Shown: positions 15,140 to 38,734 of the stretch, piece after piece | How positions within the stretch are numbered: the stretch's first letter is position 1 | Layout: each line of letters opens with the position of its first letter | Assembly: GCA_013696975.1 (NCBI GenBank) | Contig: JACCXO010000049.1 | Location: 1-44,597, forward strand | Direction of reading: 5' to 3' | DNA from: Nocardioidaceae bacterium | Lineage (GTDB): Bacteria; Actinomycetota; Actinomycetes; Propionibacteriales; Nocardioidaceae | Length of the DNA: 44,597 bases | Program-made: the position numbers and the translations under genes | The notes under the pieces: model-generated | What the model saw: the letters and a program-made list of their open reading frames with translations, nothing else | Told to the model about the DNA's origin: nothing | The model's database searches: none

Positions 15140-15191
15140 CAGCGCCCTCTCGTGTGCAGCCTGGCAGATCGGTGCCTGAGCAGGCTTGTCG

Positions 15192-17716: not shown

Positions 17717-19122
17717 CGGCTCGGCTCGCCTTCGTCGTCCACGAGCAAGGCGAGCGCCACCCGCTCGAGCCCAGCAGCCCTGGAAGCCTTGACCAGCACG
17801 ACATCTCCGGCGCGCGCCGTCGCACGGACAAAGCTCACTGCCGACTCGACGTCGGGCACGAACATCGATTCTGAGTCCCAGGAGCCTTCGAGGCAGGCAC
17901 CGAGATGCAAAGCCCGAGCCTCTTGTCCCACGACCACCAGTTGGTCGATGTCGAGCCGCACCACAAGGCGCCCGATGGCGTCGTGCTCGTCGCGGCTCTG
18001 CTCTCCCAGCTCCCGCATTTCTCCCAACACGGCGAAGGTCCGACAATCCGGCCTCCGGCGGTGCCCGATCGCCGCCAAAGTCTGCAAGGCGGCTCGCATG
18101 CTGTCGGGGTTGGCGTTGTAGGCATCGTTGATGATCGTCAACCCGCTGGCCGTCGTCGACATCTCCATGCGCCATCTCGACGTCTGCTTCAAGCCCGCCA
18201 GCACGGCTGGTACGGCCTCAAAGGCAACTCCACAATTGAGGGCGACCGCGACGGCGGCCGCCACGTTGCGAGCGTGATGCTCTCCGACGAGCGGAACCGA
18301 CAACGCCTGCCTGACACCATCCACCTCGAGGGCGCATCGCAACCTGCCGCTCTCGTCGAGCTCGATGTCGTCGACACGCACGCCGGCGTCAAGCGACGAG
18401 CCAAAAAGAACGACGGTGGCAGCGGTGCGAGTCGCCATCGCGCGCACATGCTCGTCATCGGCGTTGAGCACCGCCACCCCACTCGACGGCAGTGCCTCGA
18501 CGAGCTCGCCCTTTGACCTCGCGATGCCTTGCTGGGACCCGAACTCGCCTATGTGTGCGACTCCGACGTTCAGCACCGCACCGACGACCGGACGCACCAT
18601 GCCGGCCAGGTCTCGGACGTGGCCTCGGCCGCGCGCGCCCATCTCGACAACCAAGAACCGGGTCGCCTCTGTGGCCCGCAACGCGGTGAGGGGCACCCCG
18701 ATCTCATTGTTGTAGGAGCCGGCGGCTGCGATGGTCTCGCCTGATGAGGCCAGCAGCTGGGCCACAATGTCCTTGGTGGAGGTCTTGCCCTGGGAACCGG
18801 TGATGCCGACGACACGCAACGAAGGCAGACGCGAGAGCACATGGTGCGCCAACAACCCGAGAGCGTGGACGGGGTCGGCCACCACAACCGCCGGTACTCC
18901 CACCTCGCGCTGCACCAACGCGGCGGCGGCGCCGCCGGCGATGGCCTGTCCGGCGTAGTCGTGGCCGTCGACGTGCTCGCCGGCCACTGCGACGAACAGC
19001 CCCCCCGCTGCGACGTCTCGTGAGTCCACGAATGCCGACCCCCTGACGACGGTCTCGGTCGAGGCGCCCACGACGGTCCCCCCCACGGCGCTGGCCACCT
19101 CGGCAAGCGTCAAGGCGATCAT
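17713..19122 (-). CDS. murF: UDP-N-acetylmuramoyl-tripeptide--D-alanyl-D-alanine ligase
   Basis: P-loop GITGSQGKTSTKD and a Mur-ligase C-terminal domain. ATGA overlap with the murE stop. Confidence 0.93.
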   Translation of the reverse strand: MIALTLAEVASAVGGTVVGASTETVVRGSAFVDSRDVAAGGLFVAVAGEHVDGHDYAGQAIAGGAAAALVQREVGVPAVVVADPVHALGLLAHHVLSRLPSLRVVGITGSQGKTSTKDIVAQLLASSGETIAAAGSYNNEIGVPLTALRATEATRFLVVEMGARGRGHVRDLAGMVRPVVGAVLNVGVAHIGEFGSQQGIARSKGELVEALPSSGVAVLNADDEHVRAMATRTAATVVLFGSSLDAGVRVDDIELDESGRLRCALEVDGVRQALSVPLVGEHHARNVAAAVAVALNCGVAFEAVPAVLAGLKQTSRWRMEMSTTASGLTIINDAYNANPDSMRAALQTLAAIGHRRRPDCRTFAVLGEMRELGEQSRDEHDAIGRLVVRLDIDQLVVVGQEARALHLGACLEGSWDSESMFVPDVESAVSFVRATARAGDVVLVKASRAAGLERVALALLVDDEGEPSR

Positions 19123-20717: not shown

Positions 20718-20736
20718 GTGCAGAGGTTATCGGCGC

Positions 20737-22647
20737 TCACCAGGCTATGGGCAGCGCGGGTGAACGACGCCCGGTCGGCGAAACTCCGTATTTCTGCAGT
20801 GCAGCAGCCATCAGGTCGTGGAAGACCGGACCCCCAGCGCTGCCGCCGCCACTGCCGTCGGTCGGTTCCTGGATCACCACGTAGACCACGAATCGGGGTT
20901 CGTCCGCCGGGGCGAAGCCCGCGAACGAGATAGTGAAGCCTCGGTAGCCGCCCTGCTCGCTCGCCCGCTGCGCCGTACCGGTCTTGCCGGCCACGCGATA
21001 GCCGTTGATGGCGGCGAGCGGTGCCGTGCCCTCGGGCCCGGTGACGCCCTCCATCATGTGGGCGACCTGCTTGGCTGTCTTGACACTGATGACTCGGTGT
21101 CTGCTTGGCGCATCGGCACCCTCGAGCGCGCCATCACTGCCGACATACCCGCTCACGAGGGAGGGTTTGACGTAGACACCGTCGTTGGCGATCGCCGAGA
21201 GCGCCGTGGACATCTGGACGGCGTTGACGCTGAGACCCTGTCCAAAGGAGATGGTGTCGCGGCTGATCGGCAGCCAGTCGGCAGGCTCGGGGAGCAGTCC
21301 ACCGCTCTCACCGATGAGGCCCACGCCGGTCGGTTCGCCGAGGCCGAAGCTGCGCAGGTAGCGATGCAGCTGCGGGATGGGCATCTGCTCGGCTGACAAG
21401 GCGGTGCCGATGTTGGACGACCTGGCCAGCACACCGGCTGCCGTCAGCCGCAGGGTGCCATGGTCGAAGTAGTCGTTGATGGTGCTGTCTGCGCGCGGCA
21501 GGCTCGGAGGAACCGTGATCTTCGTCTTCGGCTTGACGTAACCCGCGTCGATCAGCGCCGCAAAGGTGAGCGCCTTCTGGACACTGCCGGGTTCGTAGAC
21601 GTCCATGAGCGCCCGGGAACCGTAGTTCTTCTCTGCTGTCGCCATCCACTCGTTGGGGTCGTATGTCGGATAGTCCGCCAACGCCAATAGCTCACCGGTC
21701 TCGACGTCTTGGACCACAGCGACACCCGAGCTCCCCCCGGTCTCTTTGACGGCTTGCGCGAGGCGGCGCTGGGCCAGGAACTGCAGATCCTGGTCGATGG
21801 TGAGTTTCACACCGGTGCCCTCGATGGGCGCAGTCACCGTGCTGTCCGCGAGTGGGATCTGCTGTTCGTCCGCCATCAGGTAGGTGGCAGAACCGTCCTT
21901 ACCCGCCAACAGCGAGTCGAGTGCGCGCTCGAACCCGTACAGACCCCCGCCTTCGGCGCCTGTGAAGCCCAATAGATTCGCCGCGACGTCGCCCGCCGGA
22001 TAGAAGCGCGCAGTGTCGTCGTAGGCGAAGACCCCTCCAAGGTCCGCGGAGTTCAGGCCGTTGACCACGGCTTCGGCTTGTCTGTCCGGAAGGTGGCGGG
22101 CGAGCTCCACATAGCGGGTGTCCTTCTTCAGCAGCTCGAGAGTGGCGATGTAGTCGACTCCGACCCGCCGGTGAAGACGGGTGGCGACTGCCGCCGGATC
22201 CCTGATCATGGCGGGGTCAGCCACCAACTTCGCCGCATCCACCGTCTGTGCCAGGGCCACGCCGTTGCGGTCATAGATAGGTGCGCGTGGAGCTTGCAGC
22301 GCAACCGTCTTCGCGCCCTTCTGCACCGCCATTTGGGCGTAGTCGTTCTCATCGATGCCTTGCAGTTGGATCAACCGTGCCGCAAAGAGCGACAACACGA
22401 ACGCCAAGACTCCTAAGGCGCTCCAGAGCCGTCCTGCGCCGTGGGCCACGGTTTCGGCAACACTGCTTCCCGAGGTCGGACGCCTTCTCGGAGCCGGCTG
22501 CCTCGGAGCCGGCTGCTTTCCTCGAGTCGGGCGTTGTCGTGTCGCCGGTCGCGCAGCCACAGGTCGCCCGGACGCCGGTCGCCCGGACGCCGGTCGCTTC
22601 GCCGCCTTGGACCGACCACTAGCGCCGTTCGGGGTGTGCTCAGCCAC
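20737..22647 (-). CDS. ftsI: Division-specific class B penicillin-binding protein (FtsI/PbpB)
   Basis: Contains SxxK (GSVQK), SxN (SSN) and KTG (KTGTA) motifs. The N-terminal cytoplasmic tail is Arg/Pro-rich, followed by one TM segment. I chose the GTG at 22647, overlapping the ftsL stop region; 636 aa. The track ORF extends through ftsL. Confidence 0.9.
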   Translation of the reverse strand: MAEHTPNGASGRSKAAKRPASGRPASGRPVAARPATRQRPTRGKQPAPRQPAPRRRPTSGSSVAETVAHGAGRLWSALGVLAFVLSLFAARLIQLQGIDENDYAQMAVQKGAKTVALQAPRAPIYDRNGVALAQTVDAAKLVADPAMIRDPAAVATRLHRRVGVDYIATLELLKKDTRYVELARHLPDRQAEAVVNGLNSADLGGVFAYDDTARFYPAGDVAANLLGFTGAEGGGLYGFERALDSLLAGKDGSATYLMADEQQIPLADSTVTAPIEGTGVKLTIDQDLQFLAQRRLAQAVKETGGSSGVAVVQDVETGELLALADYPTYDPNEWMATAEKNYGSRALMDVYEPGSVQKALTFAALIDAGYVKPKTKITVPPSLPRADSTINDYFDHGTLRLTAAGVLARSSNIGTALSAEQMPIPQLHRYLRSFGLGEPTGVGLIGESGGLLPEPADWLPISRDTISFGQGLSVNAVQMSTALSAIANDGVYVKPSLVSGYVGSDGALEGADAPSRHRVISVKTAKQVAHMMEGVTGPEGTAPLAAINGYRVAGKTGTAQRASEQGGYRGFTISFAGFAPADEPRFVVYVVIQEPTDGSGGGSAGGPVFHDLMAAALQKYGVSPTGRRSPALPIAW

Positions 22648-23221
22648 GTGGCTTCCCTTCGTCCGTGCGCGGTTTCTCCTGGCCAGGGCGGTCACGGTCG
22701 GGTTTCGCGACCGCGACGAGAGGGGCATAAAGGGTGTTGCCGGCGCCAGCGACCGGGGCATCGATCTTGCCGTTGCCCACGGCCCCAGCACCCGGAGTCC
22801 CCAGGCCCACGTCAACTTGGTTCGCCTCGTCAGCGGCGAGTTGCTTGCCGATGATTGATCCGCTGGCCAGGGACAAGAACACTGGACTGTCGTTTTGCAC
22901 CATGCCGAGCTGGATCGCCTGTTGAGCCACCCGTTGCGGGTCTTGCAGCCCCCCCACCTTCGTCTGGAGCAACTCCCGTCGCACCTCGAGCGCATTGAAC
23001 TCGTTCCGGAGGTCGGTTGCGGCATAGGCCCCTCGCTGCAGCGCCGTGTTGAGCAGCAGCAAGCCGACGAGGCCACTCACAAGCAACATCATGACAAACA
23101 AGACGAAAGGTAGCCGCGGCGCCTGCGAGTTCGGCTGGGCAACGATCGTCAGCCGCTGACGCGGCACGACAGTGGCGGGGTCCAACACCCGTGCTCTTCC
23201 CGCCCAGGCATCGATGCTCAT
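22640..23221 (-). CDS. ftsL: FtsL-like septation protein (single TM plus coiled coil, extended C-terminal tail)
   Basis: It sits between rsmH and ftsI, as Rv2164c does. It has a TM helix [21 protein letters not shown] followed by a leucine-zipper-like segment. ATGA overlap with the rsmH stop. Confidence 0.75.
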
Positions 23222-24171
23222 GCGGCGTCTCGGATTCGCTCAGCGGCGCGCAGTCGTACCGACGCTGCTCGGGGGTTGGCGGTGATCTCGATCGCGGACG
23301 CAGTCTCTGCTCCACGAGTGACGAGCCGCAGCTCCGGTTCGTGCCCCAACAGCTCGACCGGTAAGTCGACCGGCGCCGTCGAACGGGCTCGGCTGGTCAA
23401 GAGCCGCTTGACCAGCCGGTCTTCGAGAGAGTGGTAGGACATGACGACGATGCGACCGCCGACTGCCAGTGCGTCCACCGCACGCGGTAATGCGCGTTCC
23501 AGAGCAGCAAGCTCGTCGTTGACCTCGATCCGCAGAGCCTGGAACGTGCGCTTCGCGGGATTCCCGCCAGTGCGTCGAGCCGGAGCTGGAATCGCGGCCC
23601 GGATGAGCTCCACCAGCCGCGCACTGCCGGCGAAGGGCGTTTCGGCCCGCTCCCGTACGACGAACTGCGCGATCCGTCGGGCGAAGCGCTCTTCGCCGTA
23701 TCGGGACAAGACCTGTGCGAGCTCGGTCGCCGAGTAGGTGTTCAACACCTCAGCGGCCGTCTTGCCGGTGGCATTGTCCATCCGCATGTCGAGGGGAGCG
23801 TCTTGGGTGTAGGAGAAACCGCGCTCGCGCACATCCAACTGGAGAGATGACACTCCCAGGTCGAACAGCACCCCCTGAACACTTGGCAGGCCGAGCTGTT
23901 GAAGCACTCGCGGGATTTCGTCGTAGACCGTATGCACGAGCGTTGTGCGTGCAGAGAAGGGCGCGAGTCGAGCCTGGGCGAAAGCTAACGCCTCTTGGTC
24001 GCGGTCGCAGCCCACGACATAGGCAGCGGGACAACGGTTCAAGATCGCCTCGGTGTGACCGCCGAGCCCCAGCGTTGCATCGACCAGCACCGAGTCCGGG
24101 GCCCCAAGTGCTGGTGCAACCAGCGCGACGACCCGGTCCAAGAGCACCGGAACGTGAAGAGGGTCGGTCAT
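23218..24171 (-). CDS. rsmH: 16S rRNA (cytosine1402-N4)-methyltransferase
   Basis: Contains [23 protein letters not shown] and [11 protein letters not shown] motifs; 317 aa. Confidence 0.95.
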
Positions 24172-25010: not shown

Positions 25011-25165
25011 AGCCAACCATCGGGCGCCTACGCGTCGCGTCCCACTCCCGCCGTGACACATGCGAGCAGGGTCGATCCCGAACGGGCTTGGCGGAGATGA
25101 CAAGATCGGAGAGGACACGGCCCGGTTCAGGCGGACGTCTGACGTCGACGCTCACGAGGAGATCC

Positions 25166-26137
25166 ATGAGTAGCTTCGAGACTCTCGCCACGGTGACCGA
25201 TCGGGTGTGCAAGAACATCGAGCGTGTCATCGAGGGCAAAGCCCAGGTTGTGCGCACAGCTATCACCGTCCTGCTCGCTGAGGGTCACTTGCTCATCGAG
25301 GATGTGCCGGGTGTGGGCAAGACAATGCTGTCCAAGAGTCTGGCCAGGTCGATCGACTGTTCGGTCAAGCGCATCCAGTTCACCCCCGATCTGCTGCCAT
25401 CAGATGTGACTGGCGTGTCCATCTACAACCGTGAAACCCGTGAGTTCGAGTTCCGCCCCGGTGGGGTGTTCGCCAACATCGTGGTGGGAGACGAAATCAA
25501 CCGAGCCTCCCCGAAGACGCAGTCAGCGCTGCTCGAATGCATGGAGGAGCGGCAGGTCACGGTGGACGGCACGACATACGAGCTGACGGCGCCGTTCATG
25601 GTGATCGCCACGCAGAACCCAATCGAGATGGAGGGCACCTACTCACTGCCCGAGGCTCAGCGCGACCGCTTCATGTCCCGGTTGTCGATGGGCTACCCAG
25701 TGCCCCGATCAGAGCTGGCGATGCTCGACTCGCATTCAGCCGCAAACCCGCTCGATGACTTGGAGCCGGTCACCGACGCCGCCGAGATCGCCAAGCTGGT
25801 CGACGTGGTCCGCACGGTGCACGTCTCCGAGGCTGTCAAGCAGTACGCGATAGACATCACGTCCGCAACTCGACGGTCACCAGATCTGCGCCTCGGCGCC
25901 TCGCCCCGCGCCAGCCTGCACCTCATTCGGGCAGCCCGAGCACATGCCGCGCTGGAGGCGCGAGACTACGTGATCCCGGACGACCTGCAGACCCTGGCCG
26001 TCCCTGTGCTCGCGCACCGCCTCATCACCAACCTGGAGGCTCAAATGGGCGGACGGGGAGCTGAACAGATCGTCAGTGCACTATTGCGCTCCATCCCTAT
26101 CCCCGAGCAAGCGCCCTCGGGTCGGCGTGACGGCTAG
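25166..26137 (+). CDS. MoxR-family AAA+ ATPase
   Basis: Walker A DVPGVGKTML and Walker B IVVGDEINRASPKTQSALLE, plus the ATQNPIEMEGTYSLPEAQRDRF motif. I chose the ATG at 25166, preceded by GAGGAG; 323 aa. The TTG at 25088 is an alternative start. Confidence 0.9.
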   Translation: MSSFETLATVTDRVCKNIERVIEGKAQVVRTAITVLLAEGHLLIEDVPGVGKTMLSKSLARSIDCSVKRIQFTPDLLPSDVTGVSIYNRETREFEFRPGGVFANIVVGDEINRASPKTQSALLECMEERQVTVDGTTYELTAPFMVIATQNPIEMEGTYSLPEAQRDRFMSRLSMGYPVPRSELAMLDSHSAANPLDDLEPVTDAAEIAKLVDVVRTVHVSEAVKQYAIDITSATRRSPDLRLGASPRASLHLIRAARAHAALEARDYVIPDDLQTLAVPVLAHRLITNLEAQMGGRGAEQIVSALLRSIPIPEQAPSGRRDG

Positions 26138-26148
26138 GCGGCTTTCCT

Positions 26149-27459
26149 GTGAAGCGCGGCACGCTGTCCTCCTTGACCACTCGGGGACGCGGTTTCCTGT
26201 CGGCGGGACTGACGAGTGCGCTGTGTGCCATCGTGCTCGGCCAACGCGACCTGCTCCGGGTCGGACTGCTGTTGATCGCGCTCCCCGTCATCACAGCGCT
26301 GATCGCGAATCGGTCGCGCTATCTCTTGTCATGTTCTCGTGAGACAACACCCGCGAGGGTCGAGGTGGGCCAGGGCGCAACCGTGACCCTGACGCTCGAG
26401 AACCCAGGCCGCATTCCGACCGGGTTGATGCTGCTCGAAGACCATTTGCCCTACGTCCTCGGCACCCGACCACGATTCGTGCTCGACCAGTTGCGGCCAC
26501 GATGGCACCGATCCATGCAGTACGTCGTCCGCTCCGAGGTCCGGGGTCGCTTCAGCATCGGGCCCTTGAGCGTGCGGATCAGCGACCCATTCGGATTCGT
26601 CGAGCTCAACCGGTCCTTCACGAGCCGCGCCACGCTGGTCGTCACTCCGCAGGTGAGCGCCTTACCCACGGTGCGGTTGTCGGGTGACTGGTCGGGCACC
26701 GGCGACAACCGGCCACGGGCCTTTGCGGCGGCCGGCACCGAAGACGTCATGGTCCGCGAATATCGCCTTGGCGATGACCTACGCCGGATCCACTGGCGGT
26801 CGAGCGCTCGCGCTGACGAGCTGATGGTTCGTCGCGAGGAACAGCCACACCAGAGCCGGGCCACCTTGCTCCTTGACACTCGCACCAGCGCCCATCGCGG
26901 TTCGGGTCCGGCATCGTCTTTTGAGTATGCCGTTTCGGCTGTGGCCTCCATCGGCGCACACCTGGCCCGGGAAGGCTTCACTGTCCGGATGCTGACAGAT
27001 GGAGCACACGGCTCGACGTCGGACTGGCATGAGCGAGGCATCAGCGGTCCGGCCGAGGTGCAGCTGCTGCTCGACTCGTTGGCGGTGATGCAGACGAGTA
27101 CCCGGCGGGAGTTCGCGGGCGGCGGCGAGCAGCATTCGAGCGGCCTTGTCGTCGCGGTGCTGGGTGACGTGAACCCCACCGATATCGCCGCCTTGTCGCG
27201 ACTGCGAGCTGGTTCCACCCGCAGCCTCTGCATCCTGCTGGATGTGGCCGCCTGGGCGCGAGCCGACAATGTGGGCGCTGGCGACCTTGCTTCTGTACAG
27301 AGCCGGGCCGAAACTTTGCAGCGACAGGGCTGGACGGTAAGAATCGCCAACCCGAGCGACCGGCTGCCGAGTCTGTGGGGCGACTTCGGGAACCCTGCGA
27401 CGGCTGCGCTCAGCTACGTCCCCGATGCTGGTGTCACAGAAGGGTCACCTGCGGCATGA
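26149..27459 (+). CDS. DUF58 (vWA-like) domain protein, the usual MoxR partner
   Basis: Two N-terminal TM segments and the DUF58 signature VREYRLGDDLRRIHWRSSARADELMVRREE. GTG start 12 nt after the moxR stop. Confidence 0.88.
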   Translation: MKRGTLSSLTTRGRGFLSAGLTSALCAIVLGQRDLLRVGLLLIALPVITALIANRSRYLLSCSRETTPARVEVGQGATVTLTLENPGRIPTGLMLLEDHLPYVLGTRPRFVLDQLRPRWHRSMQYVVRSEVRGRFSIGPLSVRISDPFGFVELNRSFTSRATLVVTPQVSALPTVRLSGDWSGTGDNRPRAFAAAGTEDVMVREYRLGDDLRRIHWRSSARADELMVRREEQPHQSRATLLLDTRTSAHRGSGPASSFEYAVSAVASIGAHLAREGFTVRMLTDGAHGSTSDWHERGISGPAEVQLLLDSLAVMQTSTRREFAGGGEQHSSGLVVAVLGDVNPTDIAALSRLRAGSTRSLCILLDVAAWARADNVGAGDLASVQSRAETLQRQGWTVRIANPSDRLPSLWGDFGNPATAALSYVPDAGVTEGSPAA

Positions 27460-29798
27460 CGGCACGCACGAACGAGCGGCACAAGATGGCCTTATTGGGT
27501 TGGCTCGCGACGGTTGCCACGTCGTTGAGCTTCTCCCCTGCCCTGGCCGACAAACGGTTCGTGCTCATCGGCGCCTTGCTCGCAGCGTTGGTGATATGTG
27601 CTGGGGCAGTCCTCCGACAGCTCAAAGCGCCATGGCCCGTGGTCCTCATCGTGCAGCTGCTCCTGCTCCTCGAACTGCTCGCCGTCGGATACGGCAAGGG
27701 GCTGAAGTACAACGTCGTGCCCACCGACAAAACGTTCGCCGGGATAGCGCAGGTGCTGCGCGCGGGCGTGACAACGGCTCAGGAGTACGCCGCGCCAGCC
27801 CCCAAGAGCGCCGGCCTGACGCTCATGGTCGTGTTCCTTATCGCAATGGTGGCGATCCTGGTGGACCTCTTGGCGGTGGGGCTGGGGCGCGTGCCGCTAG
27901 CGGGACTACCGCTGCTCACTCTTTACACCGTTCCGGTTGCGGTCCTCCCCACCGGCGTTCCTATCTACGCCTTCGTACCCGGCGCAATCGGCTACATCTG
28001 CATGCTGACGACCGCTGAGCGCGAACGCTTGGCCCACTGGGGACGGTTGGTCCGCCGCTCGGAGGGGCCGACGGGAGCGCACGAGACCGTCGACACGTCT
28101 GTGCTGGCGGCGACGGGTCGCAAGGTGTCGTTCCTGGCCCTGTCGGCGGCGGTCCTGCTGCCCTTCGTCATACCGGCTTTTGCGCCCTCGATCTTGGACG
28201 GCGGTCGCCAACCCGGACGGGGCAGCGGTGCTGGCGGAACGCTGAGTTTCGATGATCCGATGGTGAGCTTGGCGCAGAGCCTGAGGCGCCCAGATCCCGT
28301 GGACGTCCTGTTGGTCGAGAGCGATGAGCGTCCCGAGTACCTTCGGCTTGCGGTGCTCGACCAGCCCGGTCCCGACGCTTGGCGCACCCGGCCGATCGAT
28401 CTGGCCGGCGACACTGTGCAACTGGACCAGGAGCTACCTGCTCCCGTGGGGTTGTCGACAGCGGTAGTCGGCGAGAACCGCGGCATGCACATCTTGCCCA
28501 CGAGCAACTTCCCGAGCGACAGCCCATGGCTCCCGGTTCCGTTCGCCAGCCAGGATGTGGCCGCAGGCAATGAGTGGGCATTCGTTCCCGAGGATCAGAC
28601 CGTCACCGGTGCTGTGGACTCGGCGGATTTCCCCACCGACGGCTACGACGTGGACTACCGGACCGTGGAACCCACCGCAGAGCAGCTCACATCAGCCAGT
28701 TCGACCCCGAATGACATCGTTGATCGCTACGCGTCGGTGCCCGAGGATGTGCCGGCCGAGATAGGCACCACAGCGCGAGCCGTCGTGTCCGGAGCGGGCA
28801 GCGACTACGAGGCGGCGGTGCTGCTGCAGGACTTCTTCCGCGACGGCGACAACTTCGACTACGACCTGGAGGTCGGCTACGGCTACGGCTACGGCGCCAT
28901 GGTCGAGTTCCTCGAAGAGAGACGAGGATTCTGCCAGCAGTTCGCTGCCACCATGGCGATGATGGCGCGAGAGGTCGGCATCCCGTCACGCATCGTGGTC
29001 GGCTTTTTGAAGCCCGAGAGGCTCGACCAGGGCAGCGACAACGTCTTCACCTCAGACAATGTCCACTCCTGGCCAGAGCTGTACTTCGAGGGTGTGGGTT
29101 GGGTGCGGTTCGAGCCGACGCCGGGGAACGGAGCAACGCCGCCGGCATACGCTCCTCGACCACAAGCGAACCCTCCAGGCGGTCCGCGGCCGCCCGTAGC
29201 GACGGCGACTGCGCAGCCCGAAGAGCTGCGACCGTCGCTCGACCCGGATCCGGGTGGCGCGTCGGCCCCAGCCGACTCCTCATCGTCGAAATCTGGTTCA
29301 GATGGTGCGCTTCCCTCCGAACGCTGGCTGGTAGCCCTCGGAGCGCTGATTTTGTCGGTGCTACCTTCCCTCCTGCGCAGCGCCATCCGCCGTCGTCGGA
29401 CAAGTCAGCTTGTCGACCAGATCGCGGCGGCCGAGGCAGCCTGGCTCGAGCTCCGCGACTCCATGATCGATCTCGGTCTACCGTGGAAGGGCTCCATGAC
29501 CCCGCGGGCACGCGAACGGGAGACCCAACGCTTCCTTGATGGGGATCCCGCCGGATTGTCTGCGCTCAGACGTCTGACGTTGAGTGTTGAGCAAGCCCGT
29601 TATGCCAGCTCATCGCCGCCAGACACACAGCCAGGTGACGACGTGAGCAAGGTGGTGTCATCGTTGACACGGGCGGCGGATCGTGGCCAACGGTTGCGTG
29701 CGTTACTGATGCCTGCATCGCTAGTGCCGGACTTGCGGGCCGAAGCAGCGCGGCTACGCGAACAGTGGGCCACCCGCCGGGTGCGGCCGATTCCTTGA
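27456..29798 (+). CDS. Polytopic membrane transglutaminase-like protein (TgpA-like: DUF3488 / transglutaminase core / DUF4129-like tail)
   Basis: ATGA overlap with the DUF58 stop; 780 aa. It has about 6 N-terminal TM segments. The core has Cys (RGFCQQFAATMAMMAR) and His (NVHSWPELYF), then GWVRFEPTP, where Glu replaces the usual Asp. A late TM segment and an Arg-rich tail follow. Confidence 0.88.
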   Translation: MTARTNERHKMALLGWLATVATSLSFSPALADKRFVLIGALLAALVICAGAVLRQLKAPWPVVLIVQLLLLLELLAVGYGKGLKYNVVPTDKTFAGIAQVLRAGVTTAQEYAAPAPKSAGLTLMVVFLIAMVAILVDLLAVGLGRVPLAGLPLLTLYTVPVAVLPTGVPIYAFVPGAIGYICMLTTAERERLAHWGRLVRRSEGPTGAHETVDTSVLAATGRKVSFLALSAAVLLPFVIPAFAPSILDGGRQPGRGSGAGGTLSFDDPMVSLAQSLRRPDPVDVLLVESDERPEYLRLAVLDQPGPDAWRTRPIDLAGDTVQLDQELPAPVGLSTAVVGENRGMHILPTSNFPSDSPWLPVPFASQDVAAGNEWAFVPEDQTVTGAVDSADFPTDGYDVDYRTVEPTAEQLTSASSTPNDIVDRYASVPEDVPAEIGTTARAVVSGAGSDYEAAVLLQDFFRDGDNFDYDLEVGYGYGYGAMVEFLEERRGFCQQFAATMAMMAREVGIPSRIVVGFLKPERLDQGSDNVFTSDNVHSWPELYFEGVGWVRFEPTPGNGATPPAYAPRPQANPPGGPRPPVATATAQPEELRPSLDPDPGGASAPADSSSSKSGSDGALPSERWLVALGALILSVLPSLLRSAIRRRRTSQLVDQIAAAEAAWLELRDSMIDLGLPWKGSMTPRARERETQRFLDGDPAGLSALRRLTLSVEQARYASSSPPDTQPGDDVSKVVSSLTRAADRGQRLRALLMPASLVPDLRAEAARLREQWATRRVRPIP

Positions 29799-31412: not shown

Positions 31413-32609
31413 TCAGGGTCGCGACGTCTTGAGGAGGGTTGCCGGTCGCACGGCGGCACCACCGAATCGATGCACAGCGCGATCGACAGCCCTCTCGGCG
31501 TCTTCCCAGCCATGTTGGCGTTCCCCCAGCAACAGCTGGCGCGTGGCGGTGGCCGAGTCGCAGAGGTTCTCGACTCGTACCCCCACCATGCGGATGCGAG
31601 CGCGCTGCAACCCGAGCGCTGAGAACAAGCCGGCAGCGGTCGCATAGATCTCGGGGGTCAGGTCGGTCGCATCTCGCAACGTTCGCGATCGGGTGAAGGT
31701 GGTGAAGTCGTAGAACCTGACTCGAATGGTCACGGTGCGGCCTTTGACGCAAGCCTTGCGCATCCGAGCTGCCACCTTGGTCGACAACCGCAACAGCTCT
31801 CGAAGCACGATCGCAGCGTCGTCCACGTCTCGGCTGAATGTCTCGTCGGCACCGATGCTGTGCTCAGGCTCATCGGCACCGCGGCGAGCGATGATCGTGT
31901 GCTGGTCACTTCCCCATGCCATCGCATGCACTCGAGCGCCGACGACCGGCCCCAAGGCTCGTTGCATGATGCTGACCTGCGTGTGGGCGATGTCGCCGAC
32001 AGTGCGCAGGCCGAGCCGATGTAGCTGGGCCGCTGTCTTTTCGCCAACACCCCACAGCTCTTCGACCGCGAGCGGGTGCAAGAACGCCGTGACTTCATCG
32101 TGAGGTACGACGACCAGCCCGTCTGGCTTGGCGCGTCTGGATGCCAGCTTGGCCACCTGCGTGGTCGCCGCCACCCCCACTGAACAGGTGATGCGCTGTT
32201 CATCAGCGATTCGAGCTCGTAGGTGCTCCCCGATCCGGGTCGATGAGTCGAACCGGCGAAGGGAACCTTTGACCTCGAGGAAAGCCTCGTCCATCGACAA
32301 CGGTTCGACGAGTGGTGTCACACTGCGGAAGGTCTCCATGATGGCCGACGACACCGTGCTGAACTGTTCGAAGTCGGGAGCTATGACCAGGGCCCGCGGA
32401 CACAACCGACGTGCCCGGGTCATGGGCATGGCGGATCGGACTCCGGATTGTCGAGCGGCATACGTCGCCGAGAGCACCACGCCACGATTCCCACCGCCCA
32501 CGATGACTGGTTGGCCCTGCAGCTCAGGTCGATCGCGAATCGCGACAGAAGCATAAAAGGCATCCATGTCGACGTGGAGAATGGTGCAGCCGGTGTCGTC
32601 AGCAGTCAT
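31413..32609 (-). CDS. dinB: Y-family DNA polymerase IV (DinB type, catalytic residues intact)
   Basis: Contains ILHVDMDAFYASV (catalytic Asp pair and steric-gate position) and LSMDEAFLEV (catalytic D/E), followed by HhH and little-finger regions. A QLLLG clamp-motif-like sequence lies near the C-terminus. Confidence 0.9.
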   Translation of the reverse strand: MTADDTGCTILHVDMDAFYASVAIRDRPELQGQPVIVGGGNRGVVLSATYAARQSGVRSAMPMTRARRLCPRALVIAPDFEQFSTVSSAIMETFRSVTPLVEPLSMDEAFLEVKGSLRRFDSSTRIGEHLRARIADEQRITCSVGVAATTQVAKLASRRAKPDGLVVVPHDEVTAFLHPLAVEELWGVGEKTAAQLHRLGLRTVGDIAHTQVSIMQRALGPVVGARVHAMAWGSDQHTIIARRGADEPEHSIGADETFSRDVDDAAIVLRELLRLSTKVAARMRKACVKGRTVTIRVRFYDFTTFTRSRTLRDATDLTPEIYATAAGLFSALGLQRARIRMVGVRVENLCDSATATRQLLLGERQHGWEDAERAVDRAVHRFGGAAVRPATLLKTSRP

Positions 32610-32671
32610 GTCCCTAGCCGCTCAGGAGGAGGGCCGACCGACGACGGGTCCGCTCGAAGGCGGGTGTCAGC

Positions 32672-33421
32672 TCAAAGCCGGGTCGCCAACAGGTGCAGCT
32701 GGGTCGCGATAGCCAAAAAGTCCGGATCGGTGGCGACTGCGGCTTCGAGTGCATGCAGCTCCTCAACCGCACCGGGCTCAGAGTCGACCATGGTGCTGGC
32801 GATGTGGTCGGTGAAAACCCTGACGCCACGCACCTCGGTGACGGTGAAGTGCGCTGAGGCGAGGAGCTCACATAGCTCTGCCAGTGAGAAGCGGCGTGGC
32901 GCGGAGTCGGCTCTGCTATCGGAGGTTTCGCGTTGCTGGAGCAGCGCTCTGGCGTCGGCGAGATGACCAGCGATCGCACGAGAGAAGACCGCGGCTGAGC
33001 GTTGCGCCACCAGGACGGACAGACACCCACCCTCGACCAGAGCCGTTGCCGCCGACGTGAGGGCAAGCGCTGGTTCGTCAACCACCTCGAGCACCCCGTG
33101 ACAGATGACGACATCCGCACTGGCCGGCTGAACCTCGTCGAGCAAGGTTGCCGCATCACCGAGGACTCCGCGGACGCCTGCGCTGACGGACACCTCAGCT
33201 GCTCGCCGCTCGAGGGATGCGAGCGCGTCCGGGCTGGGATCGACCACGAGGACGTGATGACCGAGCTCGGCAACCCGCACCGCCAGACCTCCGGTGCCGC
33301 CACCGAGGTCGATGACCTGCAGCGGTCGGTTAGCGCCCACGTCGAGGTGTCGTGCCCGCAGCGCCTCATGCAGCGCATCCCACACCATCGCAGTGCGCAG
33401 TGCGCTGCGACGATGCTCCAC
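32672..33421 (-). CDS. Class I SAM-dependent methyltransferase, substrate unknown
   Basis: Motif I VIDLGGGTGGLA and motif II-like DVVICHGVLEVV; 249 aa. I preferred it over the overlapping 313-aa ORF in another frame (32614-33555), which has no motifs and an Arg/Ser/Pro-biased composition. Confidence 0.8.
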   Translation of the reverse strand: MEHRRSALRTAMVWDALHEALRARHLDVGANRPLQVIDLGGGTGGLAVRVAELGHHVLVVDPSPDALASLERRAAEVSVSAGVRGVLGDAATLLDEVQPASADVVICHGVLEVVDEPALALTSAATALVEGGCLSVLVAQRSAAVFSRAIAGHLADARALLQQRETSDSRADSAPRRFSLAELCELLASAHFTVTEVRGVRVFTDHIASTMVDSEPGAVEELHALEAAVATDPDFLAIATQLHLLATRL

Positions 33422-33524
33422 CGATGACCTCTTTCGCTGCCCAACAGGTGGCTAAACCCTAGGCCATGACGGCTGGCTCGCCGCGGTCGTTGCGAGCGGC
33501 GCTCGGCGAGAGGGCGCACCGTGT

Positions 33525-36500
33525 TCATCCGGCGCTGCCGGGGCTGCGATGCCACAGCTTGCGAGGCACGGACTTGGAGTCCTCACCAGCGGGGCGGATA
33601 TCGGAGTACGGTGACTGCTTGTACCCACTGGTATGCACTAACACTCGGCGGCGGCCCATCCCGCCGGCAGTTGGAGCCGCCTCGTCTGTATCTTCGACGA
33701 GAGGGGTAGGTCCGGTGTCGTAGCTGGGTGGGCGTGCCATCACTGGTCGGCTCGATGAGCTACCGGCTGCTCCGTGAACAGCGTGGTCGTCGACCGTGCC
33801 GCTGGCGTGCTCGTCGAACCCCGCAGGCAACAACCGCATGCAGTCGTACACGGCCTCGATCCCTTGGCGTTGCCAGATCTCGTGGAGCATCGGCAGCTCC
33901 CAACAGCCGGTAGCGCGCAAGGACACCCCCTTGGGCCCGGTGCGGCGCAGCACTCCACGCACCACCAGCAGCCACGAGTGGAACAAGGTCGCGGCATAGG
34001 GTCCCTGGGCGTCTTCGAAGAAGGTCGCGTCAACAGGGCCGGTGCCGTCATCGAGGGTCAGGAACACCACGCGCCTGCCGGATCTGATCGGCGGTGTCTG
34101 GGTGGCGACCTTCACTCCAGCGACCAGCAGCTCACACTTGGTGCGGCGATGCAGAAGGTCTCGAGACCAACAGACATCGAGCTCGCGGAGCAGAGGTGCG
34201 TAGAAGTCGACGACATGGTGGCTCACGTCGAGTCCGAGAATCTCCAGCTCCGCTCGCACCCGCTCGGCTCCTGACATCTCTGGCAGGCCAGACGACTCCG
34301 TCAAGGCGGGAGTGTCGTCGAGGTCGAGAGTCAGCTGGACGCCGGTGACCGGCTCCACGGCTTTGGCGCCTTGTGACTGAGCCGCCGCCAGCGCGCGGGG
34401 GTCGGTGCCAGTTGGCGGGAGATGAGCCGAGGTGGTCGCGGCGCGGCGAGGCGAGGCGGCCCGCACTGCCTTGTCAGTGGCTCGGCTCCAACGGTCGAGG
34501 TCGAGCACCTGCAGCAAGAGGTCGCGCCTGGTCACGGTGCCCCGACGGCGTACCGGAACTGGGGAACCGATGCCATAGACCGCATCCAGGCCCCCCGCAA
34601 GCACCAGTCGTTCGGCGATGGGCCGGGAGACGCGAGCTCGTTGCCACAGGTCGGTGAGCGAATGGAAGGGACGCGCGGCCAGGATGCGCGCGATCTCCGC
34701 GTCGCTGATGCCCTTGACGTCCGCGAGCGACAGCCGGATACCGTAGGCCCGCCCGTCGGGCAGGTCAGGAGCGGGTGCTGGGCGGGGTGCGCGGCCGAGC
34801 ACCTCCGGTGGCGGCTCGTCATAGCTGCCGACTCTCTCGATCCGATAGACGTCGTCGGAGCAGTTGACGTCCAGGGGCAGCACGGCGATCCCGAACTGGC
34901 GAGCGTCGTCGAGGATCAACCGCTTGGGATACATGCCCGGGTCGTGGGTGAGCACGCCTGCCAGGAACGCCGCCGGATGGTGTGCCTTGAGCCATGCTGA
35001 CTGGTAGGTCGGAAGCGCGAAAGCCGCCGCATGGGCTTTGCAGAACCCGAATGAGGCGAAGGCTTCGAGGACCTCCCAGCAGCGTCGAGCGATGAAGGTG
35101 GAGTAGCCCCGGGCCAACACCCGCGGGAAGAACCAGAGCTTGATCGACTCTTTGCCCTGCTTGTCTCCCAACGCCCTGCGCGCTTCGTCGGCCTCCGCCA
35201 GCGTGCAGCCAGTGAGGGTGGCGATGATCTCGATCACCTGTTCGTGGAACACCACCACGCCGCACGTGGAGGCGAGAGACTCTTCGAGGTCGGGGTGGAT
35301 GTACTCCGGTTCTGACCAGCCTTGCCGGGCGCGGAGAAAGGGGACCACCATGTCGCTCTTGACCGGTCCCGGACGAAACAGCGAGATGTCGATGATGATG
35401 TCTTCGAAGGTCTCGGGAGCGAACTTGCCGACGAGCTCGCGCTGACCCGGGGACTCGATCTGGAAGCAGCCCAGGGTCTTGGTGCTCTGGATCAAGGCGT
35501 ATGTCGCGGGATCATCTCGTGGCGCCTGCGCCTCGTCGTCGATGTCGATCTGGATGCCATCGACCCGCTTGATCTCGTCGAGCGCATAACACATCGCCGA
35601 CTGCATCCTGATGCCGAGCACGTCGAGCTTGAGCAGGCCGAGGTCTTCGACGTCGTCCTTGTCGAACTGGCTCATGGGGAAGCCGAGATAGCTGGCCTCG
35701 ACCGGGGTGCGGTCGAGCAACGTGGCGTCGGACAGCAACACACCGCAGGGGTGGACGGCGATGTGGCGAGGCAACCCGTCGAGCTTTTCGACCAGCCCGA
35801 ACAACCGGTCGAGACGCTCCTCTCCCAGGCCGGAAGCGCGCAGCTCAGGGAGCTCGCGAAGGGCATTGCGCGCATCGCGAGCCCGGATGTGCGGGAAGGA
35901 CTTGGCGATGGAGTCGATCTCTCCCGGTGGCATCCCTAGAGCAGCCCCGACATCGCGGATCGCGTGGCGCACCCGATAGGTGTCCATCATCGAGACACAG
36001 GCGCAACGGGTGCCTGAGTAACGCTCGAGGATGCGCTCGTAGACCTCGGTGCGGCGAGCTGACTCGACGTCGACATCGATGTCGGGCAGTGCCTGCCGCA
36101 GCGGTGAGAGAAACCGCTCCATCAGCAAGCCGTAACGAATCGGATCCACGCCGGAGATGCCGAGCAAGTAGTTGACGACGCTGCCTGCACCTGAGCCGCG
36201 AGCGGCAACGCGCACGCCCATCTCGCGGATCAGATCGACGACGTCGGCCACGGTGAGGAAGTAGGTCGAGTACTTAAGCCGCTCGATCACCCCGAGCTCG
36301 TCGCGGAGCCGACTGCTCACCGCCTTGTGCTGGTCAGGAGAATAGAGCCGTCCGATGCCGGCTTCGCAGCGCGCGCGGAGCAGAGCATCGCCAGGAGAAG
36401 CAGACGGAGACCCAGATCCACGGCCGATGTTGAACTTAGGGCCGATGTTGAATTCAGGGCTGATGTTGAATTCAGGGCCGATGTTGAATTCAGGGCTGAT

Positions 36501-37499
36501 ATTGAATTCAGGGAAGTGCACCTCGCCGAGGCCGAGGTCGGCCTTGGGGTCCACGGCGCAGCGGTCCGCCACCGCTCGGGTGCGAGCAAGCATCCGGTCG
36601 GCCTCGCGTACGTCGAAGCCTGCGAACCGGCAGATCTCATCGGCGATGTCGGCCATCTCCTTGCCGGACTTCAAAAAGCCTTCGGCGTTGGCTCGATCGA
36701 CGTGGCGAAGGTCGAGAGGCACCAGGCGGCGTACGGAATCCAAGATGTCGACGGTCGGCGCGTCAGATCTGTCGGCGTAACGGACCGCGTTGGTGAGGAC
36801 TGCCCCAAAGCCTGCGCTGGCGGCAAGCCCCGCCATCCGCGCCGCATGGGAGCTCGAACCGGGGCCGTGCCCGCCGCTGCGGTGGGAGAATACCTCGACC
36901 ACGACCTGGAGAGGATCGGTGACCTCCCGCCAGCTGCGCAACACCTCACGAGCGAGGTCGTCTCGTCGCAACGTCGTCGCCCATCCCAGTTCAGAGGCGG
37001 GTCCCAACATCACCACCGCGTCATGGTCTGACTGGAGCCCTGCTAAGTGGGTGGCAACCAGCTCTCGAGTGGCGACAGGAGCACCGCGCTCGCCACGCAG
37101 GTGAGTCGCCGACACGAGTCGGCACAAGGCTGCCCACCCCGCCTTGCTGCCGGCGAACACCGTGATGCGAGGCAAGGCATGAGAGCTCGGGTCTCGATAG
37201 CTTCCCCCACGCGCAGGCGAGGAGCGAGACACCCCAGCCCGACCAGTCTGAGCCGGTGAATGACCCAAACCCATCAGACCAGAGGGCTCCACAGCGAGAT
37301 CGACACCCAGCACTGGCCGGATGCCACCACTCAGGCACGCCTTGGCGAAGCGCACGGCGCCATAGAGCCCGTCGCGGTCGGTGAGAGCGAGGGTGTCCAT
37401 CTCGGATTCGACGGCCCGCTCCACCAGTCGGTGCGGATGCGAGGCGCCGTACTTCAGCGAGTAGCCGGAAGCAACATGCAGGTGGACGAAGGGATCCAT
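33525..37499 (-). CDS. dnaE2: Divergent DnaE2/ImuC-like error-prone DNA polymerase III alpha homolog (1324 aa)
   Basis: It has a PHP N-terminus (FVHLHVASGYSLKYGAS, with the second His of the HxH pair replaced by Ala), Pol III alpha palm/fingers blocks (GFCKAHAAAFA, LLKLDVLGIRMQSA) and an OB-fold region. The terminal PRKLWHRSPGSAG resembles DnaE2 C-termini as I remember them. A LexA box and a damage promoter lie upstream. It is longer than typical DnaE2 because of several low-complexity insertions. The DnaE1-versus-DnaE2 assignment needs phylogeny. Confidence 0.75.
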   Translation of the reverse strand: MDPFVHLHVASGYSLKYGASHPHRLVERAVESEMDTLALTDRDGLYGAVRFAKACLSGGIRPVLGVDLAVEPSGLMGLGHSPAQTGRAGVSRSSPARGGSYRDPSSHALPRITVFAGSKAGWAALCRLVSATHLRGERGAPVATRELVATHLAGLQSDHDAVVMLGPASELGWATTLRRDDLAREVLRSWREVTDPLQVVVEVFSHRSGGHGPGSSSHAARMAGLAASAGFGAVLTNAVRYADRSDAPTVDILDSVRRLVPLDLRHVDRANAEGFLKSGKEMADIADEICRFAGFDVREADRMLARTRAVADRCAVDPKADLGLGEVHFPEFNISPEFNIGPEFNISPEFNIGPKFNIGRGSGSPSASPGDALLRARCEAGIGRLYSPDQHKAVSSRLRDELGVIERLKYSTYFLTVADVVDLIREMGVRVAARGSGAGSVVNYLLGISGVDPIRYGLLMERFLSPLRQALPDIDVDVESARRTEVYERILERYSGTRCACVSMMDTYRVRHAIRDVGAALGMPPGEIDSIAKSFPHIRARDARNALRELPELRASGLGEERLDRLFGLVEKLDGLPRHIAVHPCGVLLSDATLLDRTPVEASYLGFPMSQFDKDDVEDLGLLKLDVLGIRMQSAMCYALDEIKRVDGIQIDIDDEAQAPRDDPATYALIQSTKTLGCFQIESPGQRELVGKFAPETFEDIIIDISLFRPGPVKSDMVVPFLRARQGWSEPEYIHPDLEESLASTCGVVVFHEQVIEIIATLTGCTLAEADEARRALGDKQGKESIKLWFFPRVLARGYSTFIARRCWEVLEAFASFGFCKAHAAAFALPTYQSAWLKAHHPAAFLAGVLTHDPGMYPKRLILDDARQFGIAVLPLDVNCSDDVYRIERVGSYDEPPPEVLGRAPRPAPAPDLPDGRAYGIRLSLADVKGISDAEIARILAARPFHSLTDLWQRARVSRPIAERLVLAGGLDAVYGIGSPVPVRRRGTVTRRDLLLQVLDLDRWSRATDKAVRAASPRRAATTSAHLPPTGTDPRALAAAQSQGAKAVEPVTGVQLTLDLDDTPALTESSGLPEMSGAERVRAELEILGLDVSHHVVDFYAPLLRELDVCWSRDLLHRRTKCELLVAGVKVATQTPPIRSGRRVVFLTLDDGTGPVDATFFEDAQGPYAATLFHSWLLVVRGVLRRTGPKGVSLRATGCWELPMLHEIWQRQGIEAVYDCMRLLPAGFDEHASGTVDDHAVHGAAGSSSSRPVMARPPSYDTGPTPLVEDTDEAAPTAGGMGRRRVLVHTSGYKQSPYSDIRPAGEDSKSVPRKLWHRSPGSAG
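36426..36515 (-). repeat. 5 x 18-bp in-frame tandem repeat inside dnaE2
   Basis: The plus-strand units are gatgttgaacttagggcc, gatgttgaattcagggct, gatgttgaattcagggcc, gatgttgaattcagggct and gatattgaattcagggaa. They encode PEFNIS-PEFNIG-PEFNIS-PEFNIG-PKFNIG. Four units carry GAATTC. GC content is visibly far below the surrounding DNA. Confidence 0.95.
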
Positions 37500-37511
37500 G
37501 ACTGGTCTGCC

Positions 37512-37817
37512 TCAGTCGATGCTGCAGACGAGCTGCCATTGGCCGCTGGCCCAGTCAAAGGCCAGGTCGAACACACCGGCGCCGCCCTCGGCTGCAACAC
37601 CTGAGCGGCCGTTGATGGCCTCGACCCGCCACAGCTCTCTCTCGCCCAACAGATCGGTCGACAGGTCTGGCTGCTCCCACCAGGCGCTGGTCTCGATCCA
37701 ATGGGCGATGAGGTCACGCACCACCCAGAACGTGCCGCGCCACAAGAACTGCTCGGGTGCCTCTTGACCTGCCACCAGACCCCGACGCACCTCAATGGGA
37801 TCGCAATAGCTACGCAT
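37512..37817 (-). CDS. 101-aa protein resembling the C-terminal domain of ImuB, stand-alone
   Basis: GGAGG lies 7-8 nt before the ATG, and the stop is 12 nt before the dnaE2 ATG. The Trp-rich pattern FLWRGTFWVVRDLIAHWIE..WWEQ...ERELWRVEA...GVFDL..D..SGQWQLV matches my recollection of the ImuB C-terminal block (F.WRG..h.V......ERI...WW....RDYfRVE...G...wlf.d....W.l.G). The functional call is inference. Confidence 0.55.
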   Translation of the reverse strand: MRSYCDPIEVRRGLVAGQEAPEQFLWRGTFWVVRDLIAHWIETSAWWEQPDLSTDLLGERELWRVEAINGRSGVAAEGGAGVFDLAFDWASGQWQLVCSID

Positions 37818-37970
37818 CTGGTGACCTCCACACAGATTTGGCCGCTCTCAGCTGGCAGCAGAGGAAAGAAATGACGGGGTATCGCCCGGCGGGGAAGGGG
37901 GTCGAAGCCTTCCTCGCCGTGGCGATCCGTTCCATCGAGTGGCGCCGCGAAACGCCAGCTTCATGGCTGA

Positions 37971-37986
37971 TCGAACAAATGTTCGA
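37971..37986. promoter_or_regulatory. LexA SOS box (perfect actinobacterial Cheo-type palindrome)
   Basis: tcgaacaaatgttcga equals TCGAAC-N4-GTTCGA with no mismatch. It lies 154 nt upstream of the miniprotein ATG and immediately downstream of the putative -10 element below. Confidence 0.75.
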
Positions 37987-37995
37987 ATCAATAAG

Positions 37996-38018
37996 ACAGT
38001 AAACCCCGCTACCGACAA
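37996..38018 (-). promoter_or_regulatory. RecA-NDp / PafBC-type DNA-damage promoter motif
   Basis: The minus strand reads TTGTCGGTA-gcggggtt-TACTGT, which fits tTGTCRgtg-N8-TAnnnT. It is oriented toward the miniprotein-dnaE2 operon. Confidence 0.6.
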
Positions 38019-38197: not shown

Positions 38198-38734
38198 ATG
38201 GACGAGACACATTGGCAGCGCCATCTGCTAGTCGGACTGCTGGCTCTCGCCGTCGCCACGGTCTCACTAGGGGGGATAGGCGGCATCCTCACCCTGCGAG
38301 CAGTCGAGCTCACCGGCATCAAACCAGCCACCGAGACCGCCTCCAAGGAACCTGCGGGGCCTGCGGGGGCCGCGGGGCCCAAGCCTCGACCCAGGGCGCC
38401 GCATGCCACCGAGGCGGCTCAACCCAAACCGACCAACCCTGAACGACCACGGACCGCAAGCAATCGGCTCATCACGTTGAATGCCACTCCTCAGTCGGCC
38501 GAGGCCTACGAACGGGTGGACCTGACCGGCACCTACCAGGGCGAAGGCGCCACCACCTCGTTGCAGGTGCAACGCCTTGACGGTGGGACCTGGGTGGACT
38601 TCCCTGTCAGCGCGAGTGTCGACGGTCGGACGTTCTCGACATACATCCTGACGGGCGTGGTAGGTGAGAACCGGTTTCGGGTCCAGGACGGCAGCGGTCA
38701 GACTTCAAACGTCGTCACGGTCACGATCACCTGA
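38198..38734 (+). CDS. Hypothetical membrane-anchored protein (N-terminal TM, Pro-rich linker, beta-rich Ig-like C-terminal domain)
   Basis: 178-aa ORF. It has a TM helix LLVGLLALAVATVSLGGIGGIL, a P/A/K linker, and a C-terminal ~95 aa with alternating beta-strand-like pattern. I recognised no family motif. Confidence 0.6.
   Translation: MDETHWQRHLLVGLLALAVATVSLGGIGGILTLRAVELTGIKPATETASKEPAGPAGAAGPKPRPRAPHATEAAQPKPTNPERPRTASNRLITLNATPQSAEAYERVDLTGTYQGEGATTSLQVQRLDGGTWVDFPVSASVDGRTFSTYILTGVVGENRFRVQDGSGQTSNVVTVTIT

Follow-up and report, generated by a model that had tools for sequence, protein, structure and literature searches.

A probable ImuA/ImuB-free DnaE2B translesion-synthesis operon behind a LexA box in a Nocardioidaceae bacterium

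Besides the imuA(imuA')-imuB-dnaE2 cassette of Caulobacter, Pseudomonas and Mycobacterium, several systems have been described in which the parts of this mutasome are separated or missing. Aravind et al. (2013) defined the ImuB C-terminal domain, ImuB-C, and reported stand-alone copies of it beside DinB and DnaE2 (PMC3765255), and Timinskas and Venclovas (2019) described variants lacking ImuA that have a Y-family polymerase (PolY), whether active or not, a stand-alone ImuB-C and/or DnaE2 (PMC6511836). A study published in NAR in 2026 split DnaE2 into the groups A, B and X, found the genomes with DnaE2B to be without ImuA and ImuB, and defined a DnaE2B-PolY-[ImuB-C]-RecA system that occurs only in Actinobacteria, next to a DnaE2B-[ImuB-C]-only module in Micrococcales (PMC12926913). 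AlphaFold 3 "good tetramer" models, RecA included, were presented there for five species, Nocardioides euryhalodurans, Janibacter indicus, Kineococcus radiotolerans, Ornithinimicrobium pratense and Tessaracoccus lapidicaptus (PMC12926913, Supplementary data file 4), and the orthologs were assigned to ImuB-C by PSI-BLAST, by HHpred and by a novel beta-barrel fold shared in these models. Here we analyze a 44,597-nt (44.6-kb) stretch of DNA from a Nocardioidaceae bacterium (contig JACCXO010000049.1), called the window below, which carries four consecutive genes for a 101-aa miniprotein, a 1324-aa C-family polymerase, a class I S-adenosylmethionine (SAM) methyltransferase and a DinB (Table 1).

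With a probability of roughly 80%, we consider these genes to form a chromosomal, LexA-repressed SOS operon of an uncultured Nocardioidaceae-like actinobacterium that encodes an ImuA/ImuB-free DnaE2B-PolY-[ImuB-C]-RecA translesion-synthesis module. The window agrees with the published system in phylum and in its parts, namely a polymerase of the DnaE2B clade, an intact DinB-type PolY in which a clamp motif is followed by a RecA-NT-like motif, and an adjacent stand-alone protein of the ImuB-C (DUF6504) family. The N-terminal 400 aa of the polymerase are 55% identical to the published DnaE2B of N. euryhalodurans (QBR90836), the DinB is 64% identical to the published PolY, C-terminal motifs included (QBR90838), and the miniprotein is 47% identical (E=9e-29) to QBR94233, published as ImuB-C. 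Differences are that the window's clade has lost a HEPN gene and that its DnaE2B has a PEFNI(S/G) insert; moreover, the system was published as a protein module, and that account is silent on the methyltransferase, on HEPN_SAV_6107 and on LexA control. The original prediction, made from the DNA letters, had read the locus as a split or rewired mutasome, in agreement with the published interpretation, but had also taken it for an undescribed architecture, and had itself named beforehand an already catalogued cassette type as the finding that would speak against it. This is what was found: the architecture, foreshadowed in 2019 and defined in 2026 (PMC12926913), is already catalogued, and the window is an ortholog of the published module. 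The further claims on gene layout stand, since the open reading frames (ORFs) of the window give four genes on the same strand with gaps of 12, 103 and 62 nt in transcription order, and Pfam and NCBIfam domain calls agree with all four gene identities.

Compared with the canonical cassette, the window shares a putative SOS regulation, a DnaE2-type polymerase whose PHP domain is degenerate, a Y-family protein bearing clamp and RecA-NT-type motifs, and an ImuB-C-type beta domain that is proposed for docking to DnaE2; however, it has no ImuA, its Y-family member is intact and unfused to ImuB-C, and its polymerase is a DnaE2B rather than a DnaE2A and keeps a QLxLDL motif that is missing in three DnaE2A references. 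A canonical ImuA-ImuB-DnaE2 cassette is not found in the window. As had been predicted, neither ImuA' nor ImuB is encoded in these 44.6 kb, where ImuB cross-matches nothing but the Y-family core encoded by dinB, and ImuA and ImuB are absent from 80 related 20-kb loci too. No recA gene was found in the window. The imuY-imuB-C-dnaE2 cassette of Deinococcus, which is needed for ultraviolet (UV) mutagenesis (PMC8072749), a role that has been proven genetically for no other split-ImuB system, likewise has a stand-alone ImuB-C beside dnaE2 and no ImuA, and is under the RecA/LexA control that is predicted for the window. There, in contrast, an inactive ImuY is predicted, the genes are ordered differently, lexA lies inside the operon, and the ImuB-C proteins are not recognized by Pfam DUF6504. 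Streptomyces dnaE2-dinB2, classed as DnaE2B-iPolY-RecA, shares with the window an upstream LexA box and the succession of a DnaE2B-clade polymerase gene and a Y-family gene, whereas its DinB2 is inactive, its two genes overlap by 4 bp and have no methyltransferase gene between them, and no ImuB-C partner is assigned to it.

The 398-aa DinB matches the Pfam domains IMS (E=1e-48) and IMS_C (E=4e-27) and reaches the cutoff of the NCBIfam DNA polymerase IV model (367.6 against 367). Both catalytic acidic motifs, DMDAFYASV and SMDEAFLEV, are present as the original prediction had stated, and judged by its sequence the enzyme is catalytically intact. Its C-terminus carries a clamp-type motif, QLLLGE, followed by a RecA-NT-like segment, AERAVDRAVHRFGGAAVRPA, which fits the hxxhxxxFGxxxh pattern of RecA N-termini, and the stretch from QLLLGE to WEDAERAVDRAVHRFGGAAVRPA aligns residue for residue with the published N. 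euryhalodurans PolY ortholog. Pattern and orthology together thus point to a RecA-NT-like motif in the DinB of the window.

The 1324-aa protein has the domain set PHP, DNA_pol3_alpha, finger, HHH_6 and OB. It scores 300 bits against DnaE1 of M. tuberculosis (29% identity) and 365 bits against that of E. coli; a comparison of these two DnaE1 proteins with one another gives 720 bits. A neighbor-joining tree was built from 1017 trimmed columns with the window protein, 14 relatives, the DnaE1 of M. tuberculosis and of E. coli, and three DnaE2A references, which are proteins of actinobacterial plasmids that each also hold an imuB-type Y-family gene. The window polymerase and the 14 relatives form one clade, sister to DnaE2A and apart from both DnaE1 proteins. 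Only two of the nine metal ligands of the PHP site are conserved, with HHYRDR-AR in place of the consensus HHDHEHCDH; all three polymerase-site aspartates (DDD) are retained. The DnaE1 scores, the tree and the PHP ligands identify the protein as a divergent DnaE2 and not as the replicative enzyme. An internal clamp-like motif, QLTLDL, is encoded at about 34000-34020; clade-wide, QL[TSAV]LDL stands where the internal clamp-binding motif is found in DnaE1. The C-terminal tail of the window protein reads PRKLWHRSPGSAG (33525-33566), and all DnaE2B proteins examined end in PRKLWH(S/A)SPGS(S/A)G. Neither the QL[TSAV]LDL motif nor this tail is present in the three DnaE2A references. These features suggest direct clamp binding by DnaE2B and a tail that may bind a partner. 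The 18-bp tandem repeat in the gene is in frame and codes for PEFNI(S/G) hexapeptides lying between the PHP and the palm region; the N. euryhalodurans ortholog lacks it, and one related locus (L010) has a different repeat, of the SGLSGG type, nearby, which suggests a repeat-tolerant linker at this place. A search of the PDB found no solved structure of DnaE2 or of a mutasome.

The miniprotein belongs to Pfam DUF6504 (E=1.7e-15). Its AlphaFold 2 model is all-beta with six strands (pLDDT 84.8) and had no significant PDB neighbor in Foldseek, and PDB sequence searches with the miniprotein and with ImuB gave zero matches. In its family the tryptophans W26, W31, W40, W46, W47, W63, W89 and W94 are invariant. 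It thus has the features of a small all-beta domain of the ImuB-C type, with conserved tryptophans including a C-terminal one and without a pattern of catalytic residues. Nearly all of its 1239 close homologs are unnamed or called "DUF6504 family protein", and we found no paper on DUF6504 in a literature search. A profile search against 1.84 billion representatives returned 764 clusters, almost all of them stand-alone proteins of 90-180 aa, and no fusion to a Y-family domain was seen among the best 150 DUF6504 representatives. The window miniprotein is a minimal form, without the low-complexity loop of 10-50 residues that separates the WWEQ motif from the LLGERE strand in most homologs.

The damage-type promoter that had been predicted upstream of the miniprotein gene is a unique, perfect LexA box, TCGAACAAATGTTCGA, the sole zero-mismatch match to TCGAAC-N4-GTTCGA in the 44.6 kb scanned. 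The first ATG follows after about 150 nt, and the box lies within the 380-nt divergent intergenic region 37818-38197. In Streptomyces, LexA binds this box motif at dnaE2; the LexA-bound dnaE2-dinB2 genes respond to mitomycin C with a 30-fold and a 14-fold induction (PMC9380542) and to UV with an induction of about 6-fold (PMC3273824). By analogy with such related systems, the operon of the window may be predicted to be damage-inducible under LexA. No internal SOS box was found in the gaps of the window or in any of the 49 related loci that were checked for one. Scanning 31000-38400 gave no terminator-like site inside the operon gaps and a single weak one upstream of the operon, at 38079-38093; a sigma-70 promoter scan of the same region gave zero promoter-like sites, a result that is uninformative for a high-GC actinobacterium.

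A scan with the polymerase, limited to one genome per species, returned more than 590 relatives, of which the best 80 loci were kept for all locus counts; the gene-order counts come from a tblastn search of these loci with the four proteins of the window. All 80 belong to Actinomycetota. The closest are metagenome-assembled genomes of Nocardioidaceae (70-81% identity), and other hosts are found among Geodermatophilaceae, Intrasporangiaceae, Kineococcus, Acidothermaceae, Jiangellales and Propionibacteriaceae. All four genes occur in the same order in 47 of the 80 loci; apart from 14 loci without the methyltransferase gene, contig ends interrupt most of the rest. The 80 loci come from many actinobacterial families and the arrangement is conserved far beyond chance; the survey of gene order proposed in the original prediction as well as its phylogeny check, in which the polymerase did not cluster with DnaE1 but fell into a DnaE2B clade sister to DnaE2A, came out in its favor. 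In almost every one of the 80 loci the DUF6504 gene precedes dnaE2B, and 67 of the 80 have a perfect LexA box no more than about 450 nt upstream of the operon's first gene. Where the three downstream genes are present (49 loci), the median gaps between them are 72 and 78 nt, and the order dnaE2B-(methyltransferase)-dinB on one strand recurs in at least six actinobacterial orders. One locus (L041, CALRVO020000210.1) holds an actinobacterial dnaE2B-methyltransferase-dinB set at 59% identity in a metagenome-assembled genome labelled Sphingomonas paucimobilis; this contig is probably mis-binned.

Some of our results weigh against this reading, or at least against parts of it, and they have to be considered together with the other explanations of the locus. 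The least credible of these, which we regard as practically refuted, is that the large protein is the housekeeping replicative DnaE1 and the cluster no mutasome. The NCBIfam DnaE1 model PRK05673 does match the protein over its full length, with 627 bits against 639 for the error-prone model, both scores being under the respective cutoffs. The DnaE1 identity was nevertheless rejected because of the low scores against DnaE1 proteins, the grouping with DnaE2A in the tree and the dead PHP site, whereas actinobacterial DnaE1 proofreads via its PHP domain; the LexA box upstream of the operon, and the classification of the orthologs as DnaE2B in genomes that also hold a DnaE1, speak against it as well. 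It is also improbable, if less strikingly so, that the miniprotein is no homolog of the ImuB C-terminus at all and that DUF6504 is an unrelated small beta family independently recruited as a partner of DnaE2B. Pfam DUF6504 misses the genuine ImuB2 of a Tsukamurella plasmid and the ImuB-C proteins of the DnaE2X type, so that DUF6504 is not to be equated with ImuB-C via Pfam, and the C-terminal fragments of ImuB carry no Pfam annotation. With the DUF6504 hidden Markov model, hmmsearch gives a marginal 10 bits or so at ImuB residues 456-494, and the comparison of DUF6504 with ImuB C-termini by hhalign is marginal both for shallow (E=0.09) and for deep alignments (128 against 126 sequences, P=0.039). 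These values, and the lack of a Y-family fusion among the 150 representatives, would fit an unrelated family. However, the weak alignments are collinear throughout (5-101 against 6-90 in the deep one), with the W...V..W...WW core and the C-terminal tryptophan in register with ImuB2; DUF6504 and the ImuB C-terminus are both predicted to be all-beta without a PDB neighbor, and the orthologs were placed in ImuB-C in the 2026 paper by three lines of evidence. The predicted likeness of the miniprotein to ImuB-C therefore holds in so far as it is an ortholog of a published ImuB-C, while our own tests against ImuB C-termini are weakly supportive: the sequence link of DUF6504 to true ImuB C-termini is weak, yet consistent with the published assignment.

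Another explanation, unlikely as well but a little less so than an unrelated miniprotein, concerns the extent of the operon. The SOS unit might consist only of the DUF6504-dnaE2B pair, the methyltransferase gene and dinB being independently expressed neighbors kept by synteny. The 103- and 62-nt gaps are roomy enough for promoters, and co-transcription across them is something that we infer from the gene layout. The linkage is not obligatory, since Geodermatophilaceae loci have dinB 6.6-7 kb away from dnaE2, with genes for a phosphodiesterase, a beta-lactamase-like protein and a JmjC protein between the methyltransferase gene and dinB. The methyltransferase gene is missing in 14 of the 80 loci, a DnaE2B-[ImuB-C]-only module is known from Micrococcales, and Streptomyces dinB1 is constitutive. 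Against this stand the recurrence of the one-strand order with short gaps in at least six orders, the gaps free of terminator-like sites, and the co-induction with dnaE2B of the Streptomyces dinB gene downstream of it. The published AlphaFold 3 models, moreover, are confident tetramers of DnaE2B, PolY, ImuB-C and RecA, although the complex of this module is known solely from such models of orthologs. On balance, we prefer to see the four genes as one SOS operon for an ImuA/ImuB-free DnaE2B module.

What remains new in comparison with the published accounts is the conserved methyltransferase gene, together with a HEPN_SAV_6107 gene in relatives of the window. The 249-aa methyltransferase, with Methyltransf_11/12/25 domains, was correctly predicted to be wedged between the two polymerases, and it takes this position in at least 49 of the 80 loci. 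Its best NCBIfam match is CmoM, at 100 bits against an equivalog cutoff of 366, and its AlphaFold 2 model (pLDDT 90) has E. coli CmoM (8joz) as best PDB match (E=6e-18, TM 0.83, 24% identity). E. coli CmoM, the tRNA cmo5U34 methyltransferase (8joz, 4htf), is thus the best whole-length structural match; however, with a score far under the cutoff, the fold is CmoM-like and an identity as CmoM is not supported, and its place in an SOS polymerase operon bears no relation to tRNA modification. In the 14 loci that lack the methyltransferase gene, dinB directly follows dnaE2; their hosts include Tessaracoccus, Propioniciclava, Micropruina, Brooklawnia and Ornithinimicrobium. The loss in several lineages indicates an accessory or passenger gene rather than a core subunit. 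Other genes, inserted between dnaE2B, the methyltransferase gene and dinB in the loci of Geodermatophilus and Enemella and coding for PhnB-like, phosphodiesterase, beta-lactamase-like, JmjC and CarboxypepD_reg proteins, were considered as functional hints and dropped as unrelated.

The second gene, HEPN_SAV_6107 (PF18726, E=8e-33), separates the DUF6504 gene from dnaE2B in 71 of the 80 loci, directly upstream of the latter (e.g., L010:7487-7999, plus strand). Neither the window nor its nearest relatives (L001-L006, L032 and L040) have this gene; no remnant of it was found in the window, and the 12-nt gap there implies a clean loss. In one 680-aa representative (P0481) DUF6504 and HEPN are fused, which may be a real fusion or an artifact of gene calling. 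A survey of HEPN domains describes the SAV_6107 family as actinobacterial and without the catalytic motif and notes no context for it. The main text of the 2026 paper (PMC12926913) does not contain the words methyltransferase, HEPN, DUF6504 or LexA, and "methyltransferase" occurs neither in its supplements nor in the papers of 2013 (PMC3765255) and 2019 (PMC6511836). The published accessions skip one gene between DnaE2B and PolY, which is the methyltransferase gene (QBR90837, APH01280, ABS04678), and one between ImuB-C and DnaE2B, which is HEPN_SAV_6107 (APH01278, ABS04680, QFG68258). We offer it as a tentative suggestion, with the odds rather against it, that the methyltransferase, and perhaps HEPN_SAV_6107 too, is not a passenger but an unrecognized functional component, such as a regulator, a nucleic-acid modifier or a subunit. 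If so, the published four-protein module would be incomplete, and the clade of the window would represent a natural HEPN-less variant.

From these parts, which are read from the sequence, and from the AlphaFold 3 models of orthologs and the ImuA'-ImuB-DnaE2 paradigm, the following course of events can be proposed. DNA damage would activate RecA and lead to the self-cleavage of LexA, by which the operator would be freed and the four genes transcribed together. The DUF6504/ImuB-C beta-barrel protein is predicted, on the basis of the published ortholog models, to dock on the dead PHP domain of DnaE2B, while the active DinB-type polymerase would bind the beta-clamp and might recruit RecA by its RecA-NT-like motif in the place of ImuA. 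Such a complex would deliver two active polymerases to the stalled fork, resulting in lesion bypass and damage-induced mutagenesis. In most lineages, a CmoM-like methyltransferase would be co-transcribed with these proteins.

Table 1. Coordinates of the operon, its operator and other features of the window
Feature	Position	Strand	Description
dinB/PolY gene	31413..32609	-	398 aa
Class I SAM methyltransferase gene	32672..33421	-	249 aa; GTG start; AAGAGG ribosome-binding site
dnaE2B gene	33525..37499	-	1324 aa, C-family polymerase
18-bp tandem repeat in dnaE2B	36422..36513	-	5.1 copies, 91% matches, Tandem Repeats Finder score 149
imuB-C-like gene (DUF6504)	37512..37817	-	101 aa; GGAGG ribosome-binding site
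LexA (SOS) operator TCGAACAAATGTTCGA	37971..37986		Perfect palindrome, TCGAAC-N4-GTTCGA
Divergent gene	38198..38734	+	178 aa; N-terminal hydrophobic helix; no Pfam match; start 211 nt from LexA box
dcw cell-division/cell-wall cluster	10565..24171	-	Complete: rsmH, ftsI, murE, murF, mraY, ftsW, murG, murC, ftsQ
MoxR-DUF58-TgpA cluster	25088..29798	+	

The surroundings of the operon include a complete dcw cluster and a MoxR-DUF58-TgpA cluster (Table 1), which places it in a conserved chromosomal core and not in a mobile element. On the dinB side a convergent L,D-transpeptidase gene is found, and the opposite flank holds DUF4126 and polyprenyl synthase genes. The divergent gene for a 178-aa protein shares the intergenic region of the operon and could also be SOS-regulated.

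The survey of related loci shows the module as a tightly conserved operon, fronted by a LexA box, across many actinobacterial families, and adds two genes that it usually carries and that are omitted from published accounts, one for a CmoM-like methyltransferase and one for a catalytically degenerate HEPN protein. The loss of both extra genes in some lineages provides natural knock-outs for testing their role. So far, the ImuA/ImuB-free DnaE2B variants have been described by computation alone, and cultured hosts such as Nocardioides, Kineococcus, Intrasporangium and Geodermatophilus would be suited to measuring induction and mutagenesis. In Actinobacteria, both damage-induced mutagenesis and the evolution of drug resistance are driven by DnaE2-type mutasomes, which makes a better knowledge of these variants of interest.

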